Origin: Planctomycetota bacterium
GTDB taxonomy: Bacteria; Planctomycetota; MHYJ01; JACQXL01
Direction of reading: 5' to 3'
DNA length: 30,444 bases
NCBI GenBank assembly: GCA_030018555.1
Contig: JASEHY010000001.1
Location: 1 to 30,444 of the forward strand
Positions 2,811-20,543 of this stretch are shown here, piece by piece. Made by a program: the position numbers and the translations under genes. The first letter of the stretch is position 1; every line of letters begins with the position of its first letter. The notes below the pieces were generated by a model that saw nothing but the letters and a program-made list of their open reading frames with translations, was not told the origin of the DNA and searched no databases.

Positions 2811-4474
2811 TGAATTATCCCAAATATATCATTAGCACCTGCGGGTTCTTGCCTTTGCACTGCGCCTATATCCTTATAGCCAGTGCTTAATGCCGCCTGA
2901 AATGCCCCAGGGAAACCTTCTGCCTTAAGATTAGTCCCAATGGCAAAATTCCTTCCCGTAGTTACCTGATATACGATATTTGCCGCCGTATTCTCTCCTG
3001 CGTCTAAATCAGTAGTAACCGTGGTCTGTGTATGTGAGGTTATCAAATACTGTCCTGCGGTTACGCCAGTTCCAGAAACAATATATATGAAGTCTTGGCT
3101 ATTCACTACATTGTTGAAATTTGCGCCTGCATCTGTTAAAGTTGAACCTGCATAAGTAGCGGTAGTGCCTGTAACCTGTGCAACAGAGGTAAAGGTAGGG
3201 TTAAGGGCTAAATCATTATCGCCTTTAGTAACATTGCTGACATCGGTATCATTATTGAAATAATCATTATAATCGTCATAGGTTACCGTCTGCCCTGCTG
3301 TGCCGTGAGAAGCACCTGTTGCAAAACCGTAAATGATATTATTGACAAACCTTGCATTAGACTGCCCAGCGGCGAGACTTATCCCTGTGCCTGTAGTATT
3401 TTCTGAACCATAAAGGGTGCAACCTTCTACTATTAGATTAGAGGTAGAGGCTGCCGTCATCTGTATCGCCGCAGTTACATGGCTATCAAAAATACAGTTA
3501 ATAATCGCAGGTGTCCCTGCTCCTGTGCCTGTCCACCTAAAACCAATATCGCTATCGTGCAGATATGAACCGATAAGATGTATATTGAGAGAACCTGTTA
3601 TGTCTAAACCTCTACCCCGATAAGAAATAAGCTCACAATCTAAAAGCAGAAGATTAGTAAATGTTGCCTGTGATAATCCCGCCCTGCCTGCGGTAGTAGA
3701 TGAATTAGTGAATTTGCAATTTACCGTTTTACTATTTGTCCCTGCGGAAAAAAGATAGCTTGCCGTTCCTGTAAGCTGAAGATTATAAAAATCAAAGTTA
3801 GTGCTTGAGGTAAATGAATTAGCCCCGCAGGCTATGGTTGGTCTTGAATTTCCCGCAGGGTTGTCTCCTCTTGTCGTTTTATATCCATAAATCCTTATAG
3901 GCGCAGTTGTCCCGCCTGTGCCTGCAATGTTGATGATTTCGCTGGGAGTAAAGGTAACAGTTGAGGTCGTATTGTTATTATAAAAATAAACCGTAACCCC
4001 ATCGGTAGTATTTGCCCCGCTAATCTCTTCAAAGAAATCATCTTCCAAAGAACCACCAACATTCAGGGCCCCGCCAATATAAAAAGTCCCCGCTGAACCA
4101 CTTAAAGAGGGTGCGGGAGTTCTATCAAGCACTAAGGTATTTGCGTCAGTAAAAGCAGTTATTTCATACCAACCAATAGTAAGATTAGTGCCTGCGGTAA
4201 TATGGATTACATTTCCTACTGCCGCTGAAGTGAATCCTCCCGTAGCAGAAGTTACGGTAGTTGACGGAGTAGTGCAAGCAAGGTCTGTGGCAGTCCATTG
4301 GGCGGCATTTTGCGTAGAATAATCTGTGCCGCTTGCCCCCGTTTTAAATCCTCCGCCGTTGACCATATTGGCTGTTGCAGTAGAGCGGAACTCAAAGATT
4401 ATACTGCTGCTCATCGTCGCAAAACATACTTGAGGAATAAATAACAAGACTAAAAATAAAAATATTTTCTTCAT
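2807..4474 (-). CDS. Tailspike/depolymerase-like right-handed beta-helix protein with signal peptide
   Basis: Signal MKKIFLFLVLLFIPQVCFA; Thr/Gly-rich; parallel beta-helix ladder (NCKF, DCEL, NCIF, GCTL, NNII) and a pectin-lyase-like tail ending DIGAVQRQE. Confidence 0.7.
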   Translation of the reverse strand: MKKIFLFLVLLFIPQVCFATMSSSIIFEFRSTATANMVNGGGFKTGASGTDYSTQNAAQWTATDLACTTPSTTVTSATGGFTSAAVGNVIHITAGTNLTIGWYEITAFTDANTLVLDRTPAPSLSGSAGTFYIGGALNVGGSLEDDFFEEISGANTTDGVTVYFYNNNTTSTVTFTPSEIINIAGTGGTTAPIRIYGYKTTRGDNPAGNSRPTIACGANSFTSSTNFDFYNLQLTGTASYLFSAGTNSKTVNCKFTNSSTTAGRAGLSQATFTNLLLLDCELISYRGRGLDITGSLNIHLIGSYLHDSDIGFRWTGTGAGTPAIINCIFDSHVTAAIQMTAASTSNLIVEGCTLYGSENTTGTGISLAAGQSNARFVNNIIYGFATGASHGTAGQTVTYDDYNDYFNNDTDVSNVTKGDNDLALNPTFTSVAQVTGTTATYAGSTLTDAGANFNNVVNSQDFIYIVSGTGVTAGQYLITSHTQTTVTTDLDAGENTAANIVYQVTTGRNFAIGTNLKAEGFPGAFQAALSTGYKDIGAVQRQEPAGANDIFGIIQ

Positions 4475-4905
4475 TCGTTTATGCGTTTCACTTTTATTCC
4501 CATTTCACTTATCAACCAATCGCCGTCGTCAGAGCCATCTCCTTTTTTTTGAGCTTTGAAATTCCTCTCAGAACAACCAATAATTACCCAGTCGGGTTTT
4601 TTAATTTCTACATTATCAAGATTACAGTTAATTAAGGTAATATTTTTAAGACCTTTAGGGAATACCTCAACTCTGCCTTTTGCTACTTCAATAGGAAGTT
4701 CTTGAGAAAAGCAAGAGCCAATAATAGTTGTTCCCTCTAACTCCGCAATATCAACATCCAATAATATCCTTCCTGTAAAATCTTTAAATGAGTATTTATC
4801 GTTATAGACAATATCTTGGCAATTTTTCCCATCAGGTTTACAATACTTGATTTGCCCCGCATAAGCTATTGAAGTCAACGATAAAAATATAATTAAAGTT
4901 TTCAT
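4471..4905 (-). CDS. Exported hypothetical protein, possibly fibre-associated
   Basis: Track ORF starts at 4935; the likely start is the ATG at 4905, giving signal MKTLIIFLSLTSIAYA. Confidence 0.6.
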   Translation of the reverse strand: MKTLIIFLSLTSIAYAGQIKYCKPDGKNCQDIVYNDKYSFKDFTGRILLDVDIAELEGTTIIGSCFSQELPIEVAKGRVEVFPKGLKNITLINCNLDNVEIKKPDWVIIGCSERNFKAQKKGDGSDDGDWLISEMGIKVKRINE

Positions 4906-7929: not shown

Positions 7930-9093
7930 TTAATCTATCCTTGCTCTGCGCCCGCTTATAAGCACTTCACCTTTAACCCCTGAAGCTTCCGCTTCTTGTT
8001 CAGAAGAAAAGGACGGGATGTTTCCTTCTTCTGGTCGCTGTCCGCTTATTCTTTTGCGTAACTTACTTACGGCAAACCCTGCATCGCTGAAATAGTTAAT
8101 GGTTATTTCCTGATTTCTCTCAATATCTTTCATAACATCAAGAGTTTTAGACAGAAATACTTCATTAGTATCTGTCGCTTTTGGATAGTTGGGAGCTAAC
8201 ATATTTAATTCAGGATAACCAGCCGCAACACCAGTAACCCACTTTCTATATTTTTGAAATGACCTGCCAATTGAAGATTTTAATGTGGCAAACTCTGCAC
8301 CTTTCATTTGTCCTAACATATCGGAAATTGCCCCTGGACGGGTAGAAAAACCAGGCCCCAACTGCAATCCTTCATTTTTCAACATCTGCATATTTTTATC
8401 TAAATCCTGCTTGGTTGACGACATTTCAGCCAAATCTCTGGCTTCTTTAGCGGGTAATGTTTTCTTTCTCTCAATGGTTGGTATTTGTTGTTTTATGCCT
8501 CTGATAGTTTGAGTGGTAGTCTTAATTATGTAATCATCTTTTTCTTCTTCAGGTATGCCCAATTTAGCAAGGGTATCTTTTTCGTTTGCCGTTACCTCTC
8601 CCGATTGTTCTAATGCCTGTAATTGTTTTTGTTTTATCTTTAATTCGGTAGATTTCAATTCACTCTCGGTAGTAGCTTTTCTCTGGTATTTTCCTTGTCC
8701 TGCTATTGCTTCAAATGGAGTCCCCCTAAAACTTACCTCGCCTGCTTCTAATGGAACTCCCTGTATAGTTTCTTCCTCAAAGACTGGCTTGCCCGCAATG
8801 CTGGAAATCTGCCTGCTGGGTATCTTAGTTAATTCTCCACCCAATATAGCTTTACCAAATTCTCTTTTGTTAGCTTCTTCGGTCTGAATTTTCTCTAATT
8901 CCTTACGATAATTATATTCATACTGCAATCCCGTTAGTGTTTTCTGTAATTCTGCCTCTTCTTTCTTGCGCTCCTTATCTTCTTGGTATCTCCTTGCCTG
9001 AGCCTCCCGAAATCGCCCCAGAATAACATTGAAAGGATTACCTTCGCTCTGTCTGCGTCCCGCCTCAATACCCTCTACAAATGGACTCGCCAT
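7930..9093 (-). CDS. Putative DNA ejection (internal virion) protein 2
   Basis: Helical, K/E/Q-rich, in the position of the middle ejection protein. Confidence 0.6.
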   Translation of the reverse strand: MASPFVEGIEAGRRQSEGNPFNVILGRFREAQARRYQEDKERKKEEAELQKTLTGLQYEYNYRKELEKIQTEEANKREFGKAILGGELTKIPSRQISSIAGKPVFEEETIQGVPLEAGEVSFRGTPFEAIAGQGKYQRKATTESELKSTELKIKQKQLQALEQSGEVTANEKDTLAKLGIPEEEKDDYIIKTTTQTIRGIKQQIPTIERKKTLPAKEARDLAEMSSTKQDLDKNMQMLKNEGLQLGPGFSTRPGAISDMLGQMKGAEFATLKSSIGRSFQKYRKWVTGVAAGYPELNMLAPNYPKATDTNEVFLSKTLDVMKDIERNQEITINYFSDAGFAVSKLRKRISGQRPEEGNIPSFSSEQEAEASGVKGEVLISGRRARID

Positions 9094-9102
9094 TTTTCTC
9101 CT

Positions 9103-10266
9103 TTAAAAATACTTAACCCTATCTCCTAATAAAGCAGGGTATTTCTTTTTAAGATTAGTTACGCTGCTTCCTGAAATCCCGCCCAATTCATCAAATACAT
9201 CGTATTCAGCTCCCGCCTTACGAAGCCCCGATAAGTCAGTAGGCGCACTCCCCCCAGGTGGGGTCTTCGGGGCAGTAGTAGGTAGATCTCCCAGATAATC
9301 TGCTCCAATCTGCCCGATTGCCGACAATCCTGCTTCGGCAGGAGAAATTATCCCACCCTTAAATCCTTCTATACCCATTCTACTCCGATAGCCTTCTGAA
9401 ATTGAGGGTTGATAGATACCTGCGGCTTGCGTAGCTACGGAAGCAGACCTGCCCTTTGATGATGCGCTGGCATTCTCCATAAGCTGTAAGAAATCCGATA
9501 GTTCAGCCCTTGAACGCTCTTTTTCGGTTAATGCCCGCTCTCCCACTGTTCCCGCTTCACCTCTTGCGCCTGAAGATAATGCTTGATAAGCTTGTATAGT
9601 TTGAAAGGCGTTAGATAATGACTGCTGCCGTGCTGCCTGTCTTTCTGCTGCTGATTTTATGGCTAAATCTACTCCTGCCCGGCCTAATTGCTCAAATCTA
9701 ATTCCGCCTTCAGGAGTGCCACCGAATACGCCCCGCCTATTAGCTTCGGCATTAACCATTTGTCTGGCTAATTCTAATTGCTGTGGTAAGGTATCTTCAA
9801 AAGTCCCGCCTGGGGTTTTCGCTTCGCCAAGTATTTGGTCTGCAAACGCTATCGCCGAGGGGCCTTCTTCTCTGAATAATTCTTCGCCTGTCTTGCCTTG
9901 TCTTGCGGCTATCTTATCTAAAAGCTGCCTTGTCTGTGGGCCAACCTCACGAAGCAACTCCTCGCCCAGCAATCCCGCTCTGCGCTCAAGTTCTTTTTGT
10001 TGTTTAGCCTCTAACCCCTCAGAAATCTTTATCGGTTGTTCGCCTTCAGGCAGTCCATATAACCTCTGTTCTCTGGCTAATTCCCCAGGGGTAAGTCCGA
10101 ACTTCTCTTCTAATCTCCGCTGTTCGGCTATTGCTGTTTGCTGTTGTTCCTTAACTAAATCTTCAGCTCTTTTTGCCGCTTTCTTTTTTTGGCTGGAGGC
10201 GATTGCTGAAGCCCCTGCCGTCGCAGCCGTAGCCGCAATTGCTATTGGAATCGCTATCGGAGGCAT
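9103..10266 (-). CDS. Putative DNA ejection (internal virion) protein 1
   Basis: Ala-rich hydrophobic start (MPPIAIPIAIAATAATAGASAIAS) followed by KKKAAK and a Q/A/G-rich helical body, typical of first ejection proteins. Confidence 0.65.
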   Translation of the reverse strand: MPPIAIPIAIAATAATAGASAIASSQKKKAAKRAEDLVKEQQQTAIAEQRRLEEKFGLTPGELAREQRLYGLPEGEQPIKISEGLEAKQQKELERRAGLLGEELLREVGPQTRQLLDKIAARQGKTGEELFREEGPSAIAFADQILGEAKTPGGTFEDTLPQQLELARQMVNAEANRRGVFGGTPEGGIRFEQLGRAGVDLAIKSAAERQAARQQSLSNAFQTIQAYQALSSGARGEAGTVGERALTEKERSRAELSDFLQLMENASASSKGRSASVATQAAGIYQPSISEGYRSRMGIEGFKGGIISPAEAGLSAIGQIGADYLGDLPTTAPKTPPGGSAPTDLSGLRKAGAEYDVFDELGGISGSSVTNLKKKYPALLGDRVKYF

Positions 10267-16056: not shown

Positions 16057-17190
16057 TTATAATGTTTGCGCTTCAAGCGCTGATATATATATAATCCCTA
16101 CCAATGCAGTAGGAGCTAACCACAAGGGCGAATTAGTTACGCAAATAATCAAATAAGAAAGTAAACCGCTGATATACCCGATATTAAGCATATTCTTCTT
16201 TATCAGGATTATCTTCTTAGCCAATCCGCAAAGATAACCCATAACCAAAATAAACAAAAATATCCCACCATCGTGAAGAACCTGTAAGAACTCACTCTCA
16301 GCAAATAACGCTACCGAAGATGTATGGTCTGCATATTTTTTGACAGCGAAACTATTTAATCCATGTCCAGTAAAAGGTTTTAATATCCAATTATCTAAAG
16401 TTATCCGCCATAGTTCAAACCTACCCGAAGCCCGTAGGTAAGAAGGATTAAAATAACAAAATGTAATTCCAATAAGAATAACGCCGCATATTATCAATAC
16501 CGCTAATCTTGTTTTTTTAGTCATTATTAAATATGCCAAAAGCCCGATGATAAAAGCCGCCATTGACATCGTGCTGTCAATAAAAACCAAACATAAGAAT
16601 ATCGCCGCATAGAAAATCTTATATTTCAAATCCTTAAACATCAAACATAATGGAGAAATCATCGCTACAAAATTAGCGGTATTCATACTATTACCCATAA
16701 AAGTAATCATCTTATTACCGTGAAGCCACTTTAAGTCTTTAGTGAATATCTGGTCTAATCCGAGCCTCTGCAATAAGGCATAAATGCTAAAGACAAACGC
16801 CACCCAGCATAAAACCTTTGCTATTTTTACCCACCTGTCCAGATTATCAGTATACTCTACAAGGTCTTTAATTAAGAATATAGAAAGAATAATATTGAGC
16901 GTCGGAAGATAATTCCAGATATTCCAATTTACTTTCACCCCGCTCTTTGCCAAAACCAAAGGAAGATAAAAGTGATATGCAAAAGATAACATAAGATAAA
17001 TCAATACCAAACCAATCCATTTGTTTTTAAGAGTATTCAGCCGTTGTTTATCGGTAATAAAATTCACCCCCAAAAGTATAAACCCAAAAATAGAAAATGC
17101 GGCATTTTTTGGCATCCAGAAATTATCCACAGTATTGGGAATAGTAATTACCGAACAAAGTATAAAGGTAACTATTAACGCAATCCACAT
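16057..17190 (-). CDS. O-antigen ligase/O-oligosaccharyltransferase-like (Wzy_C-type) polytopic membrane protein
   Basis: About 11-12 hydrophobic segments with family-like motifs FWMPK, ALLQRLGLD, TFMGNSMNTANF, SGRFELW...KPFTGHGLNSF and EFLQVLHDGG. Confidence 0.8.
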   Translation of the reverse strand: MWIALIVTFILCSVITIPNTVDNFWMPKNAAFSIFGFILLGVNFITDKQRLNTLKNKWIGLVLIYLMLSFAYHFYLPLVLAKSGVKVNWNIWNYLPTLNIILSIFLIKDLVEYTDNLDRWVKIAKVLCWVAFVFSIYALLQRLGLDQIFTKDLKWLHGNKMITFMGNSMNTANFVAMISPLCLMFKDLKYKIFYAAIFLCLVFIDSTMSMAAFIIGLLAYLIMTKKTRLAVLIICGVILIGITFCYFNPSYLRASGRFELWRITLDNWILKPFTGHGLNSFAVKKYADHTSSVALFAESEFLQVLHDGGIFLFILVMGYLCGLAKKIILIKKNMLNIGYISGLLSYLIICVTNSPLWLAPTALVGIIYISALEAQTL

Positions 17191-17198
17191 ATTAAATC

Positions 17199-17223
17199 GG
17201 GAGGGGACGATTAGTCCCCTCCC
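17199..17223. terminator. Intrinsic terminator-like hairpin after the capsid and decoration genes
   Basis: Perfect 10-bp stem GGGAGGGGAC/GTCCCCTCCC with a 5-nt loop. The tail is TTGTTTTGTT on plus and GATTTAAT on minus. Confidence 0.65.
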
Positions 17224-17755: not shown

Positions 17756-18729
17756 TTAGCTCCAAGTATCTGCGTTTAATAATGTGCCATTACGACCAAG
17801 GTTGGTCATAACGGCATTCCCCGCCCAGAGGACATAAGTTGCCAAATCGTCCTTAGTTTGGGATTTCACAAAATCACCTATCTCGGCATCTCTTCCTTCG
17901 CGCACAAATAAGCGGAAATACTTTTTTGCGTTCAGGAAATATCCGAAATTGGCAGGACAGGCATCATCAGCGAAAATCAACGCGCCTTTGTATGAAATAT
18001 TACCAAAGCCAGCATCAATCATTGCCTGGTCGCCTGCGCCTACGCCCATCAACGGAAGATTAACCTGAAAGGTTGAAGTCAACGCCCTTTCAAAGTTATC
18101 CATTGCCGCGCCTGTGAGGACAATAGTATCAATTGTCTCGTCATACCTTGTGGCTTGGCGAAACAATGTCCTCATAATGTTCAGGCCGTTGGTGGTAAAT
18201 GCGCTTGCAACATTACCCGACTGATGTCTCCACTTGGTTAATGTCGCCCTGCTTAAATTACCTACTGTTCCAGTTGTCGTGGAAGTGGTAAGCATATTCT
18301 GTAATCCTGTAATCGCCCGCAGATTAGTCTCATCAGCGGAAGAAAAAATACCCTCCGATGAACCACCGATACTTTCCCGCATTGCGATTTCCGCAGATTG
18401 CAGAAATAACTCCACGAGGTCAATCTCATTGCCTTCAGGGGTCTTAATCATATCAAGACCGCTGACCTGCACGGGGACCGCGATTTGCTTCCACTCATAT
18501 ATACAGCTTGTTGCTGGATCGCCCCTTACAGGCGTCAATGGGTCAAGGTCAGTATAACCCTGCGCCGTCGGAAGCTCCTTTAAGATGTTAAATCTTAAGT
18601 GAGGTTTTCCTCCAGTACGGATTATAGAACCAAGAGCCTTCAAGCGGTATAAGAGCGAAGTGCGGGTTGAGGCGTTATCAAATAACACCCCTTCCGCTTC
18701 GTCTGCCACGATTGAGAATATTCTTTGAT
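17756..18729 (-). CDS. Major capsid protein (HK97 fold), exon 2
   Basis: LFDN...LLYRLK, YEWKQIAVPVQVSG, GLQN, YKGALIFADDACP..GYFLN, LWAGNAVMTN are recognisable capsid motifs. The track start (GTG at 18709) has no RBS; the frame stays open upstream to the predicted 3' splice site. Confidence 0.88.
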
Positions 18730-19544
18730 CAGTATTGTTATCGCAATATTATTTAAATATTGCTTCCAGATATTGCTATCTGGCTCAGACTATCTCTTGC
18801 CTTATTATCGGCGGCGAGGCTCGTGCCAGGATTATTGTCCGCTTGGGACTCACCGGTAGTCGTTACACCTTCAAGGATATTGCTATCCAAGTTCGGCTCG
18901 GGATTGTCCAGAGCTTTTAATAAATTACTAAAAAGTTGGAGTTTCCCCGAATTCTTCGCCTTTTTTATAAGTAAAGAGGTTCTATGCAGTTCTTGGTGAC
19001 AACCTTTACACAAAACTATCCCATTCTTAACATCATACCTAAGTTCTCTATGAGTCTTAAATGGTAATATATGGTGCGCAACAAGAACCTTGTCATCAGA
19101 AAAGCAAATCTGGCATTGGTATCTATCTCTTTCTCGCACGGATTTACGCCAAGAGCTATAATCCATCCTTGTCCATCCGTATTCTTTATCCATTCTTTTT
19201 CTGCCAGCCTTCTGAAGCCCTAAAGAAATTTCCTTCCTATGTTCTAAGCTTAAAATCGCCCCTTTTTTCTTTAAACTTATTTTTTTCTTAGTTTCTTCAG
19301 AAAGATATTTACCTTTCCAATAAGCAGGATAAGATTTGGATTTTCTTGTCATACTCATTTTTTGCTTCGTTTCTTCAGTATGCTTAATCCCCAATCTTGT
19401 TTTATATCCTTTAGATCTAAAGGTTTGAGAACCCTTCAAGATATTAAGTTTAACCCGCATATCCTGACTTGCTTTTAAACCCTTATTCCACGGTATATTT
19501 CCTACTCTAAACATATCTTCCCCTTAGCTTAGGGAACTAAATTA
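18730..19544 (-). ncRNA. Group I self-splicing intron (IA-like, 815 nt) in the major capsid gene
   Basis: P1 AGGGAAU/GUUCCCU with a U.G wobble at the 5' splice site; P element AAUUCGGGGAAAC (18953-18941); Q GACAAUCCCGAGCCGAAC (18908-18891); R GAAGGUGUAACGACUA (18872-18857); S AAGAGAUAGUCU (18798-18787); P3 GGCGAAG/CCUCGCC; P8; GCAA-capped P9; omega-G at 18730. Splicing restores a 334-aa frame. Confidence 0.9.
18753..19514 (-). CDS. Intron-encoded HNH homing endonuclease with NUMOD3-like repeats
   Basis: PWNKG start; HTEETKQKMS/LSEETKKKIS/LSLEHRKEIS repeats; CQIC...AHHI...NGIVLCKGCHQELH HNH core. Confidence 0.9.
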   Translation of the reverse strand: MFRVGNIPWNKGLKASQDMRVKLNILKGSQTFRSKGYKTRLGIKHTEETKQKMSMTRKSKSYPAYWKGKYLSEETKKKISLKKKGAILSLEHRKEISLGLQKAGRKRMDKEYGWTRMDYSSWRKSVRERDRYQCQICFSDDKVLVAHHILPFKTHRELRYDVKNGIVLCKGCHQELHRTSLLIKKAKNSGKLQLFSNLLKALDNPEPNLDSNILEGVTTTGESQADNNPGTSLAADNKARDSLSQIAISGSNI

Positions 19545-19575
19545 ATTCCCTCGTAACGCTCAAATTTCCTGCCAT
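19545..19575 (-). CDS. Major capsid protein, exon 1 (31 nt)
   Basis: RBS AAGGAG, then ATG at 19575 (MAGNLSVTRE + T). It joins exon 2 to give MAGNLSVTREYQRIFSIVADEAEGVLFDN. Confidence 0.85.
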
Positions 19576-19628
19576 TTAAAGCTCCTTTGTTGGTTTTGAA
19601 GAAATGACAGGAAGTATTTTGTGAGATT

Positions 19629-20543
19629 TTACGCCCTACCAAGCCGTTCTTTTACCCGCTGTAAAATACTGCTTGCGGTTACTCTGCCTGCCTTATCTTT
19701 CACCAATTCACTCTTTGCGGTAAAAGAACCTCCAGCAGACGGAGAGGCATTGCGTTTCTTCCTGTCCAAATCTTCTTTTTCTTTTTTCTTTGCGTTATTG
19801 ACAATAGCAGTTTCAATCTCGGAATCATCAGCGAAATGATAGAGAAGTTTCTGCGCTGGCTGATTAGGATACTTCAATGACATTGCTTTAATGTCATCCC
19901 TGTATTTGCTAATCAAATCTACGCCAAACTTTTCCTCTAACTTTGAAAGCTGTCCCTCCACTTTTTCGTTATGCCCCACGGTTGAGGCATTCTTTAAAAG
20001 TGTAAGTTCTGCCTGAATTTTAGCGATTTTTTCATTCGCTATCTGTTCAGCGATTTCTTTAGCGTTCTCGGTAATGATTTCCTTAATTTCCATCAAGTCC
20101 TGCTTTACTGCTGGGTCAGAAGCTTCAGCAATGCGTTTATCTATCAGCTTAAGGTTTTTATCCGCTATTTCTGGCTTGGAAACCCTTCCTGCCTTATGGT
20201 CAGAATAAACCTTGTTCAAGGCCTCTTTGAGTTTTGGGTCTGCATCCATTTCATCAACTATGGCTTTCATACCCGCGACTCTTTCTTCCTGCGCCTTGAG
20301 GGCTTTCCTTTCATCAGCAAGTAACTGGGATTTTTTGGTATAATCTTTCCCCTGCTGCGCTAATATGATAAGCTCATCCTGCGTTACCTCTAAATCCTGC
20401 CCGTCAACCTTAATCTTAAATTTTGTTTCAGGCACAACAACAACTTCTCCCCTATTGTTAAACGGAAAGGGAAGAGTCTTGTTATTCCACCAAGATTGGT
20501 TTTGGGTCTTTTGTTCAGACTGCATTATAGCTTGGTCTGGCAT
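19629..20543 (-). CDS. Capsid scaffolding protein
   Basis: KVDGQDLEVTQDEL...GKDYTKKSQLLADERK scaffold motif; helical; directly upstream of the MCP gene. Confidence 0.85.
   Translation of the reverse strand: MPDQAIMQSEQKTQNQSWWNNKTLPFPFNNRGEVVVVPETKFKIKVDGQDLEVTQDELIILAQQGKDYTKKSQLLADERKALKAQEERVAGMKAIVDEMDADPKLKEALNKVYSDHKAGRVSKPEIADKNLKLIDKRIAEASDPAVKQDLMEIKEIITENAKEIAEQIANEKIAKIQAELTLLKNASTVGHNEKVEGQLSKLEEKFGVDLISKYRDDIKAMSLKYPNQPAQKLLYHFADDSEIETAIVNNAKKKEKEDLDRKKRNASPSAGGSFTAKSELVKDKAGRVTASSILQRVKERLGRA

Follow-up and report, generated by a model that had tools for sequence, protein, structure and literature searches.

We found that a phage major capsid gene in the window, as we call the whole 30,444-nucleotide stretch of DNA analysed here, is very probably interrupted at codon 11 by a mobile group I intron of the IA type. 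The initial annotation of this DNA had placed such an intron after only 31 nt of the gene, and that placement is upheld by colinearity of the spliced product with homologous proteins, by covariation of the guide sequence with the exon and by covariation within the ribozyme core.

The capsid gene and its splice junction

The gene is laid out as follows, with the intron assigned on homologue colinearity, Rfam family RF00028, a covariance model built from four introns at the same site (model R1, made from their cores) and covariation.

19582..19588, minus strand: capsid Shine-Dalgarno sequence AAAGGAG, 6 nt before the ATG, read from the sequence
19545..19575, minus strand: capsid exon 1, 31 nt with its ATG at 19575, encoding MAGNLSVTRE and base 1 of Tyr11
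18730..19544, minus strand: group I intron, 815 nt, subgroup IA-like, ending in omega-G 18730
17756..18729, minus strand: capsid exon 2, encoding the rest of Tyr11, residues 12-334 and the stop, assigned from PHROG 9953 and homologues

Joining 19545 to 18729, the splice originally proposed, yields a 334-aa capsid protein that starts MAGNLSVTREYQRIFSIVADEAEG (MAGNLSVTREYQRIFSIVADEAEGVLFDN). The insertion point falls between bases 1 and 2 of codon 11, the last base of exon 1 being the U of the splice-site U.G pair, and the predicted spliced junction in RNA/DNA runs ...ACGAGGGAAT joined to ATCAAAGAATATT..., with junction peptide AGNLSVTREYQR. Read without splicing, the frame gives MAGNLSVTRELI and then a stop, the UAG at 19539-19537 lying in the 3' strand of P1, just as the initial annotation had it. 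The product is a major head protein (PHROG 9953, E 2.8e-28), and tblastn weakly matches exon 2 to the major head protein of Mx8 and to the capsid protein of a Bradyrhizobium phage. The identification draws on PHROGs and these two phage matches; a Pfam search with the capsid protein returned no family at E<=0.01. A scaffold-like gene upstream ends at 19629 on the minus strand, and its spacing to the capsid ribosome site is equal in L127, a relative whose capsid gene has no intron.

Searches recovered 126 capsid homologues. Among the best 120 homologue clusters, 104 are uninterrupted, span 327-342 aa (two longer outliers, 337 and 475 aa, were set aside from this range) and share the N-terminal pattern of the spliced product. 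The closest homologue, P0002 (90% identity), is identical to the spliced window protein over its first 24 residues, and conservation across residues 1-17 is among the highest in the whole protein. Exon 1 differs from the intron-less allele in L127 at three positions, all three synonymous (AGG/CGA, GAA/GAG), which is an argument for continued translation of these 31 nt within a selected protein and for selection on exon 1 at the protein level.

Since the spliced protein is colinear with the 104 uninterrupted homologues, the alignment with intron-less capsid proteins that had been suggested as a check fixes the junction at omega-G 18730. At the DNA level the boundaries cannot slide either way, as the pre-intron base is T and the last intron base G, and the first intron base is T and the first base of exon 2 A. 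A second in-frame G at 18742 had been offered as a possible splice site abutting the P9.1 stem; it does abut P9.1 (18763-18743), but its use would insert NNTD, a sequence found in none of the 104 full-length homologues, and this rules it out.

The automatic gene call does truncate the protein, as was stated at the outset: the database entry for this contig, P0001, is a 317-aa capsid protein beginning at GTG 18709, and truncated calls recur in related contigs (P0051, P0066 and P0070). Database capsid entries of the window phage and at least four related metagenomic phages are thus 17 residues short, the intron having been missed by gene callers and being invisible to Rfam at default settings.

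Same-site variants, guide sequence and ribozyme core

Of six capsid homologues with truncated gene calls, five carry an insertion at exactly the same point; the remaining candidate, P0036, merely starts with GTG. The five variants are as follows, with the end of exon 1 and the matching guide given for each (for L002 and L005 where several contigs share an intron).

Window: 815 nt; full 253-aa HNH gene; exon end GGGAAU, guide GUUCCC
L002/L003: 826 nt; full 250-aa HNH gene; exon end GUGAAU, guide GUUCAC
L005/L006/L007: 678 nt; shortened 191-aa HNH gene; exon end AAGAACGU, guide GCGUUCUU
L128: decayed HNH gene, reduced to a 79-aa remnant of its start and end; exon end AGAGAAU, guide GUUCUCU
L004: 239 nt; no ORF; exon end CGUGAGU, guide GCCCACG, with one mismatch

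The intron occurs in 5 of about 110 capsid clusters and is lacking from the nearest relative, a patchy pattern of the sort expected of a mobile element. Patchiness, an intact HNH motif and the presence of full, shortened, decayed and lost endonuclease genes at one site are together classic signs of a homing cycle, and the five variants form a compact natural series of that life cycle which could be used in experiments. The contig L128 has two introns in one capsid gene (L128:2600-4800), of which the window has only the first: the first is at the window's site (R1 229 bits), and the second, which R1 matches at 4340-4530 with 78 bits, falls close to residue 247 of the capsid protein and carries an HNH gene of its own, 247 aa long.

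The 5' splice site is marked by a short hairpin.

19532..19550, minus strand: P1, exon bases GGGAAU (19550-19545) and intron bases UA (19544-19543) paired with UAGUUCCC (19539-19532), from the predicted minimum-energy fold

The P1 of the window pairs perfectly over 8 bp; in it the wobble pair U19545.G19537 marks the splice site and the in-frame leader stop occupies 19539-19537. The guide covaries with its own exon end in all five same-site variants, which is the behavior of an internal guide sequence. All five also share an exon 1 that ends in U, a U.G pair at the cut, an intron that ends in G, an exon 2 that starts AY and, at 1-5 codons inside the intron, an in-frame stop, which the capsid frame of the window reaches after two codons. 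Judged by eye, P10 has no more than 3 bp, and these are offset. In a separate observation, the guide bases UUCCC can alternatively pair with the endonuclease ribosome site AGGGGAA (19536-19518), a hairpin flagged by our terminator scan; similar pairings are possible in L005 and L128 and only weakly matched in L002. This hairpin is absent from the minimum-energy fold computed with or without exon 1; in RNA that has not formed P1 it might mask the start of the endonuclease gene.

Downstream, the 3' part of the intron folds into a group I core, and every element listed in the initial annotation (P1, P3-P9.1 and extra helices between P7 and the 3' strand of P3) is present. All elements are on the minus strand.

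18730..18965: ribozyme core, from RNAalifold on four same-site introns and covariation in 119 distinct members
18960-18956 / 18817-18813: P3
18951-18945 / 18903-18897: P4
18940-18937 / 18910-18907: P5
18935-18931 / 18918-18914: P5a
18896-18895 / 18869-18868: P6, hand-drawn from complementarity
18891-18884 / 18879-18872: P6a
18863, 18861-18857 / 18792-18787: P7, with C18862 bulged, hand-drawn from complementarity
18856-18853 / 18829-18826: P7.1
18849-18846 / 18840-18837: P7.1a
18812-18810 / 18801-18799: P8
18783-18766: P9
18763-18743: P9.1
18785-18784 / 18732-18731: P9.0, hand-drawn from complementarity

Run on four of the five same-site cores, RNAalifold recovers P3, P4, P5, P5a, P6a, P7.1, P8, P9 and P9.1, and 26 of 59 pairs show double compensatory changes. 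P7, added by hand as part of a putative P3/P7 pseudoknot, pairs A-[C bulge]-GACUA with UAGUC-U in the window and is invariant across the collected relatives, a set that was itself gathered by the P7 motif. Between P7 and the 3' strand of P3, P7.1 reads CCGG/CUGG in the window and CAGC/GCUG in relatives, and it encloses a P7.1a that appears as GUCC/GGAC, GUCU/AGAC, GACC/GGUC or GACGU/ACGUC; this covarying stem within a stem places the intron in subgroup IA. The AG/CU pairing of P9.0 cited earlier in favor of omega-G 18730 exists in the window and in L004, and is replaced by AA/UU in L002 and L005, the other two of the four aligned same-site introns, a two-against-two covariation that weakly supports P9.0. 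A few pairs of the window copy are imperfect: the sixth pair of P3 is A.C, and P6a contains two U.U.

A covariance-model search of the kind first suggested for this intron gave a divided answer. Rfam at gathering thresholds found no match in the window, Rfam on the whole assembly found none, and RF00028 found none in a whole-window search at E<=0.01. When only 1.1 kb was searched, however, RF00028 scored 36.2 bits, below its cut-off of 50, at E 2.3e-7 with end-to-end coverage of the model, and the alignment includes the J8/7-P7 motif AAGAGAUAGUC, which matches the Rfam consensus. The gathering threshold is a curation rule and not a structural feature. As judged from aligned sequences, the comparative evidence for a group I intron is much stronger than the Rfam result.

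Endonuclease gene, predicted mechanism and alternative readings

Most of the intron is filled by a frame that the initial annotation did not mention and that runs through the whole ribozyme core.

18753..19514, minus strand: homing endonuclease gene, 253 aa, NUMOD3 and HNH, identified by Pfam, PHROGs and homologous ORFs in L002 and L005

Its ribosome site is AAGGGGAAG at 19525-19517. The protein has NUMOD3 repeats at its N-terminus and an HNH nuclease at residues 134-181 (Pfam NUMOD3 31.8 bits against a cut-off of 20.4, HNH 27.0 against 21.4, HNH_2 28.2 against 21), and it matches HNH endonuclease families in PHROGs. It keeps the pattern CxxC...HH...N...CxxH...H as CQIC...AHHILPF...KNGIVLCKGCHQELH, with catalytic residues and zinc cysteines intact. 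The gene lies between P1 and P3, where P2 would be, and the ORF-less L004 has 5 nt there.

Past about residue 183 the frame and the ribozyme core occupy one and the same sequence, with the TAA stop in the P9.1 loop, so that some 70 C-terminal residues are dictated by the ribozyme sequence. L002 has a like arrangement, its frame crossing the entire core and ending at a TAA in the P9.1 loop, and the frame of L005 stops in P8. Overlap of an ORF with a ribozyme core is a known arrangement (PMC3984707, Figure 2b), and because of this overlap endonuclease translation and ribozyme folding would compete on one RNA molecule; such a frame could also hamper folding of the core, a point against the splicing proposed below. 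Two side observations concern the same overlap: a 3-nt indel in P7.1a keeps the endonuclease frame in the window, L002 and L005, and tblastn alignments of the window endonuclease with introns in the SU10-type capsid genes of L041, L049 and L106, and in the Mu gpT-like capsid gene of L089, extend into the core, to about residue 223. We found no sign of an intron-internal promoter for the endonuclease gene, promoter-like sites being no commoner than in shuffled sequence.

From this anatomy we infer splicing, endonuclease activity and homing along the following lines. A late pre-mRNA would carry the intron, and the guide GUUCCC would form P1 with GGGAAU, the final six bases of the exon, and present the U.G pair. 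The P3-P9 core would then bind guanosine at the G-C pair beside the P7 bulge and the RNA would be cut after U19545, whereupon omega-G 18730 would dock and the exons would join to give an mRNA for the 334-aa capsid protein. Ribosomes on unspliced RNA would halt after 12 codons at the UAG in P1, a position that would keep them out of the ribozyme, and translation of the endonuclease and folding of the ribozyme would exclude each other on a given RNA molecule. The enzyme, by analogy with other phage HNH intron endonucleases, would nick or cut capsid alleles that lack the intron, in co-infecting relatives and close to the insertion site, and repair would copy the intron in. On this account one more essential, very highly expressed late gene would depend on RNA self-splicing. 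We looked for RNA or DNA sequencing runs that include this region, and none was listed.

The ribozyme may be real by descent and yet belong to a copy that no longer self-splices, that depends on a host or phage factor, or that sits in a defective phage with a dead capsid gene, and we regard this as unlikely. The window core does have more mismatches than its relatives (the A.C in P3 and the two U.U in P6a), P10 is weak, the source of the contig is a metagenomic bin that is 79% complete, and decay does occur in this group, as the degraded endonuclease part of L128 illustrates. Those mismatches, however, are confined to a helix end and the peripheral P6a; all core helices pair, the change from CAGC/GCUG to CCGG/CUGG in P7.1 is compensatory, the P1 hairpin is perfect over its 8 bp and the HNH frame is intact. 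A dead capsid gene is likewise hard to square with an exon 1 peptide that is the same as that of intron-less homologues, its nucleotide differences being only synonymous.

It is much less probable again that nothing is spliced, a free-standing HNH gene having been inserted and the capsid protein being made from GTG 18709 as 317 aa without its first 17 residues. Gene callers chose this start in the window and in related contigs (P0001, P0051, P0066, P0070), and free-standing homing endonuclease genes beside capsid genes are common in phages (PMC10448857). Such a start would nevertheless drop residues that are among the best conserved, and would leave unexplained both the retention of a 31-nt exon 1 that has a ribosome site to itself and encodes a homologue-identical peptide, and a guide that tracks the exon in five variants. 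Nor would a free-standing gene account for the ORF-less 239-nt L004 at the same site or for about 235 nt of covarying group I core after the HNH domain. Least credible of all, we think, is some other kind of element: inteins, group II introns and programmed translational bypass are known routes to one protein across an endonuclease insertion, and nothing specific points to any of them here. An intein is excluded because the capsid frame stops two codons into the insertion; Rfam gave no group II match and no other significant family; and exon 1 ending in U, an intron ending in G and the guide pairing of P1 are group I anatomy.

The wider family, known systems and neighboring genes

The group I intron of the window has many relatives. 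A search with the 16-nt J6/7-P7 motif led to at least 119 viral contigs, in which 160 matches to model R1 are listed. Among 119 distinct sequences, 92.4% of structure cells hold standard pairs compared to 35-40% when partners are slid by 1-3 columns, and 58 of 59 pairs have changed on both sides, values attained in none of 500 shuffles; the alignment was fitted to the R1 structure, so pair counts lean towards that structure. The sole unvarying helix (columns 234-236 / 254-256) is an RNAalifold artifact over J6/7 and P7. The 3' tails align poorly across this wide family, with a G in the last column of 83 of the 119 rows.

We tallied host genes from the longest frame of at least 60 aa after each of 99 family members. 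Capsid hosts comprised SU10-type (18), P22 coat (3), Phage_capsid_2 (1) and T7 gp10A-like (1) genes, and other hosts were DNA polymerase A (8), tape measure (5), terminase (4) and polymerase B (2); one further family member lies in a Mu gpT-like capsid gene. Capsid is the commonest identified host gene of the R1 family in this motif-biased sample of the members listed, which suggests that in environmental phages capsid genes are a frequent rather than rare home for the family. More speculatively, these introns may form one large IA lineage that prefers capsid genes of unrelated families (SU10-type, P22-type, T7 gp10A-type, Phage_capsid_2, Mu gpT-type and Mx8-like), sometimes with several insertions per gene, and that keeps its HNH gene in the P1-P3 junction, translated through the core; we hold this broader reading only tentatively and think it rather doubtful. 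If true, it would imply a built-in switch between spread of the element and expression of the host gene.

Six contigs (L014, L085, L073, L109, L115 and L121) have 3-6 R1 matches within 1.5-3 kb each, with three in L085 and four in L014 beside capsid-type exons, four in L109 and six in L121. Flanking exons are capsid-type in L014, L073 and L085 (SU10-type in L014 and L073), and these contigs resemble the intron-dense genes reported for crAss-like Zeta phages.

Two cultured phages carry family members. In Pseudoalteromonas phage H101 (L130, record 8000-9500) R1 scores 73 bits at a place not annotated as an intron; an apparently truncated tape-measure CDS is succeeded by three matches, two of them strong and one marginal (11.5 bits), and then by a gene annotated as 'HNH homing endonuclease Phage intron'. 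In Alteromonas phage vB_AmaP_AD45-P1 (L129, record 42380-42630) an unannotated match of 66 bits lies beside a GIY-YIG gene. Both have the J6/7-P7 motif GAAGGUGYAACGACUA in common with the window and differ from it in host gene. Bacillus phage SP-15 has a short core match. Compared with isolate phages as a whole, the 2-kb region has no DNA similarity, and the ribozyme resembles them only in 50-nt core motifs.

The window intron is a further member of an already known kind of selfish element. A close parallel is mycobacteriophage LittleE (Cluster J), where splicing of a capsid-gene group I intron was shown by RT-PCR and N-terminal sequencing; a capsid-gene intron is also cited for lactococcal phage Tuc2009 (PMC3706429). 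Like the window, LittleE has an endonuclease-bearing group I-type intron in the major capsid gene of a tailed phage, with U at the end of exon 1 and G at the end of the intron, in a highly expressed gene whose product must rely on efficient splicing. Its endonuclease, however, is LAGLIDADG-related and encoded on the opposite strand, whereas that of the window is a NUMOD3 and HNH enzyme on the same strand, set between P1 and P3 and running through the core, and the hosts and capsid families are unrelated. In crAss-like Delta and Zeta phages group I introns are typical of the major capsid gene, with up to four interruptions in one gene (PMC7886860). These phages are metagenomic, as is the window, and group I introns with endonuclease genes similarly divide their capsid genes, in some cases at several points; their introns were recognized by protein domains rather than RNA structure (PMC7886860), and the window phage belongs to a different, podovirus-like lineage with a capsid distantly related to that of Mx8. 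The view that dependence of a capsid gene on splicing is less common thus fits the older isolate literature and does not fit environmental phages, given LittleE, the crAss-like phages and our R1-family tally.

In RNA structure comparable introns are those of T4 td, nrdB and nrdD and of Staphylococcus phage Twort orf142 (IA2), which share with the window an IA-type core with extra helices between P7 and the 3' strand of P3, an in-frame stop a few codons in that would keep ribosomes off the ribozyme, and a carried endonuclease gene. The genes that the T4 introns interrupt serve nucleotide metabolism, and the intron ORFs emerge as loops from P6 or P9 elements. In the window lineage, by contrast, an ORF stands in place of P2 and overlaps the core over its full length, and the helices added between P7 and P3 are the P7.1/P7.1a stem within a stem. 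Splicing of the T4 introns in vivo depends on translation of the upstream exon, with which the early stop in the window agrees; Sandegren and Sjoberg (2007) reportedly found this splicing to be coupled to translation.

Two features of the neighboring head module were also observed. A gene for a Wzy_C / O-antigen-ligase-like membrane protein (window 16057-17190) follows the capsid and decoration genes and stands in the same place in every related contig examined (L002, L005 and L127), so it is a fixed part of the module. Between the decoration-like and Wzy-like genes lies a perfect, GC-rich 10-bp hairpin (17199-17223) that is terminator-like on both strands.
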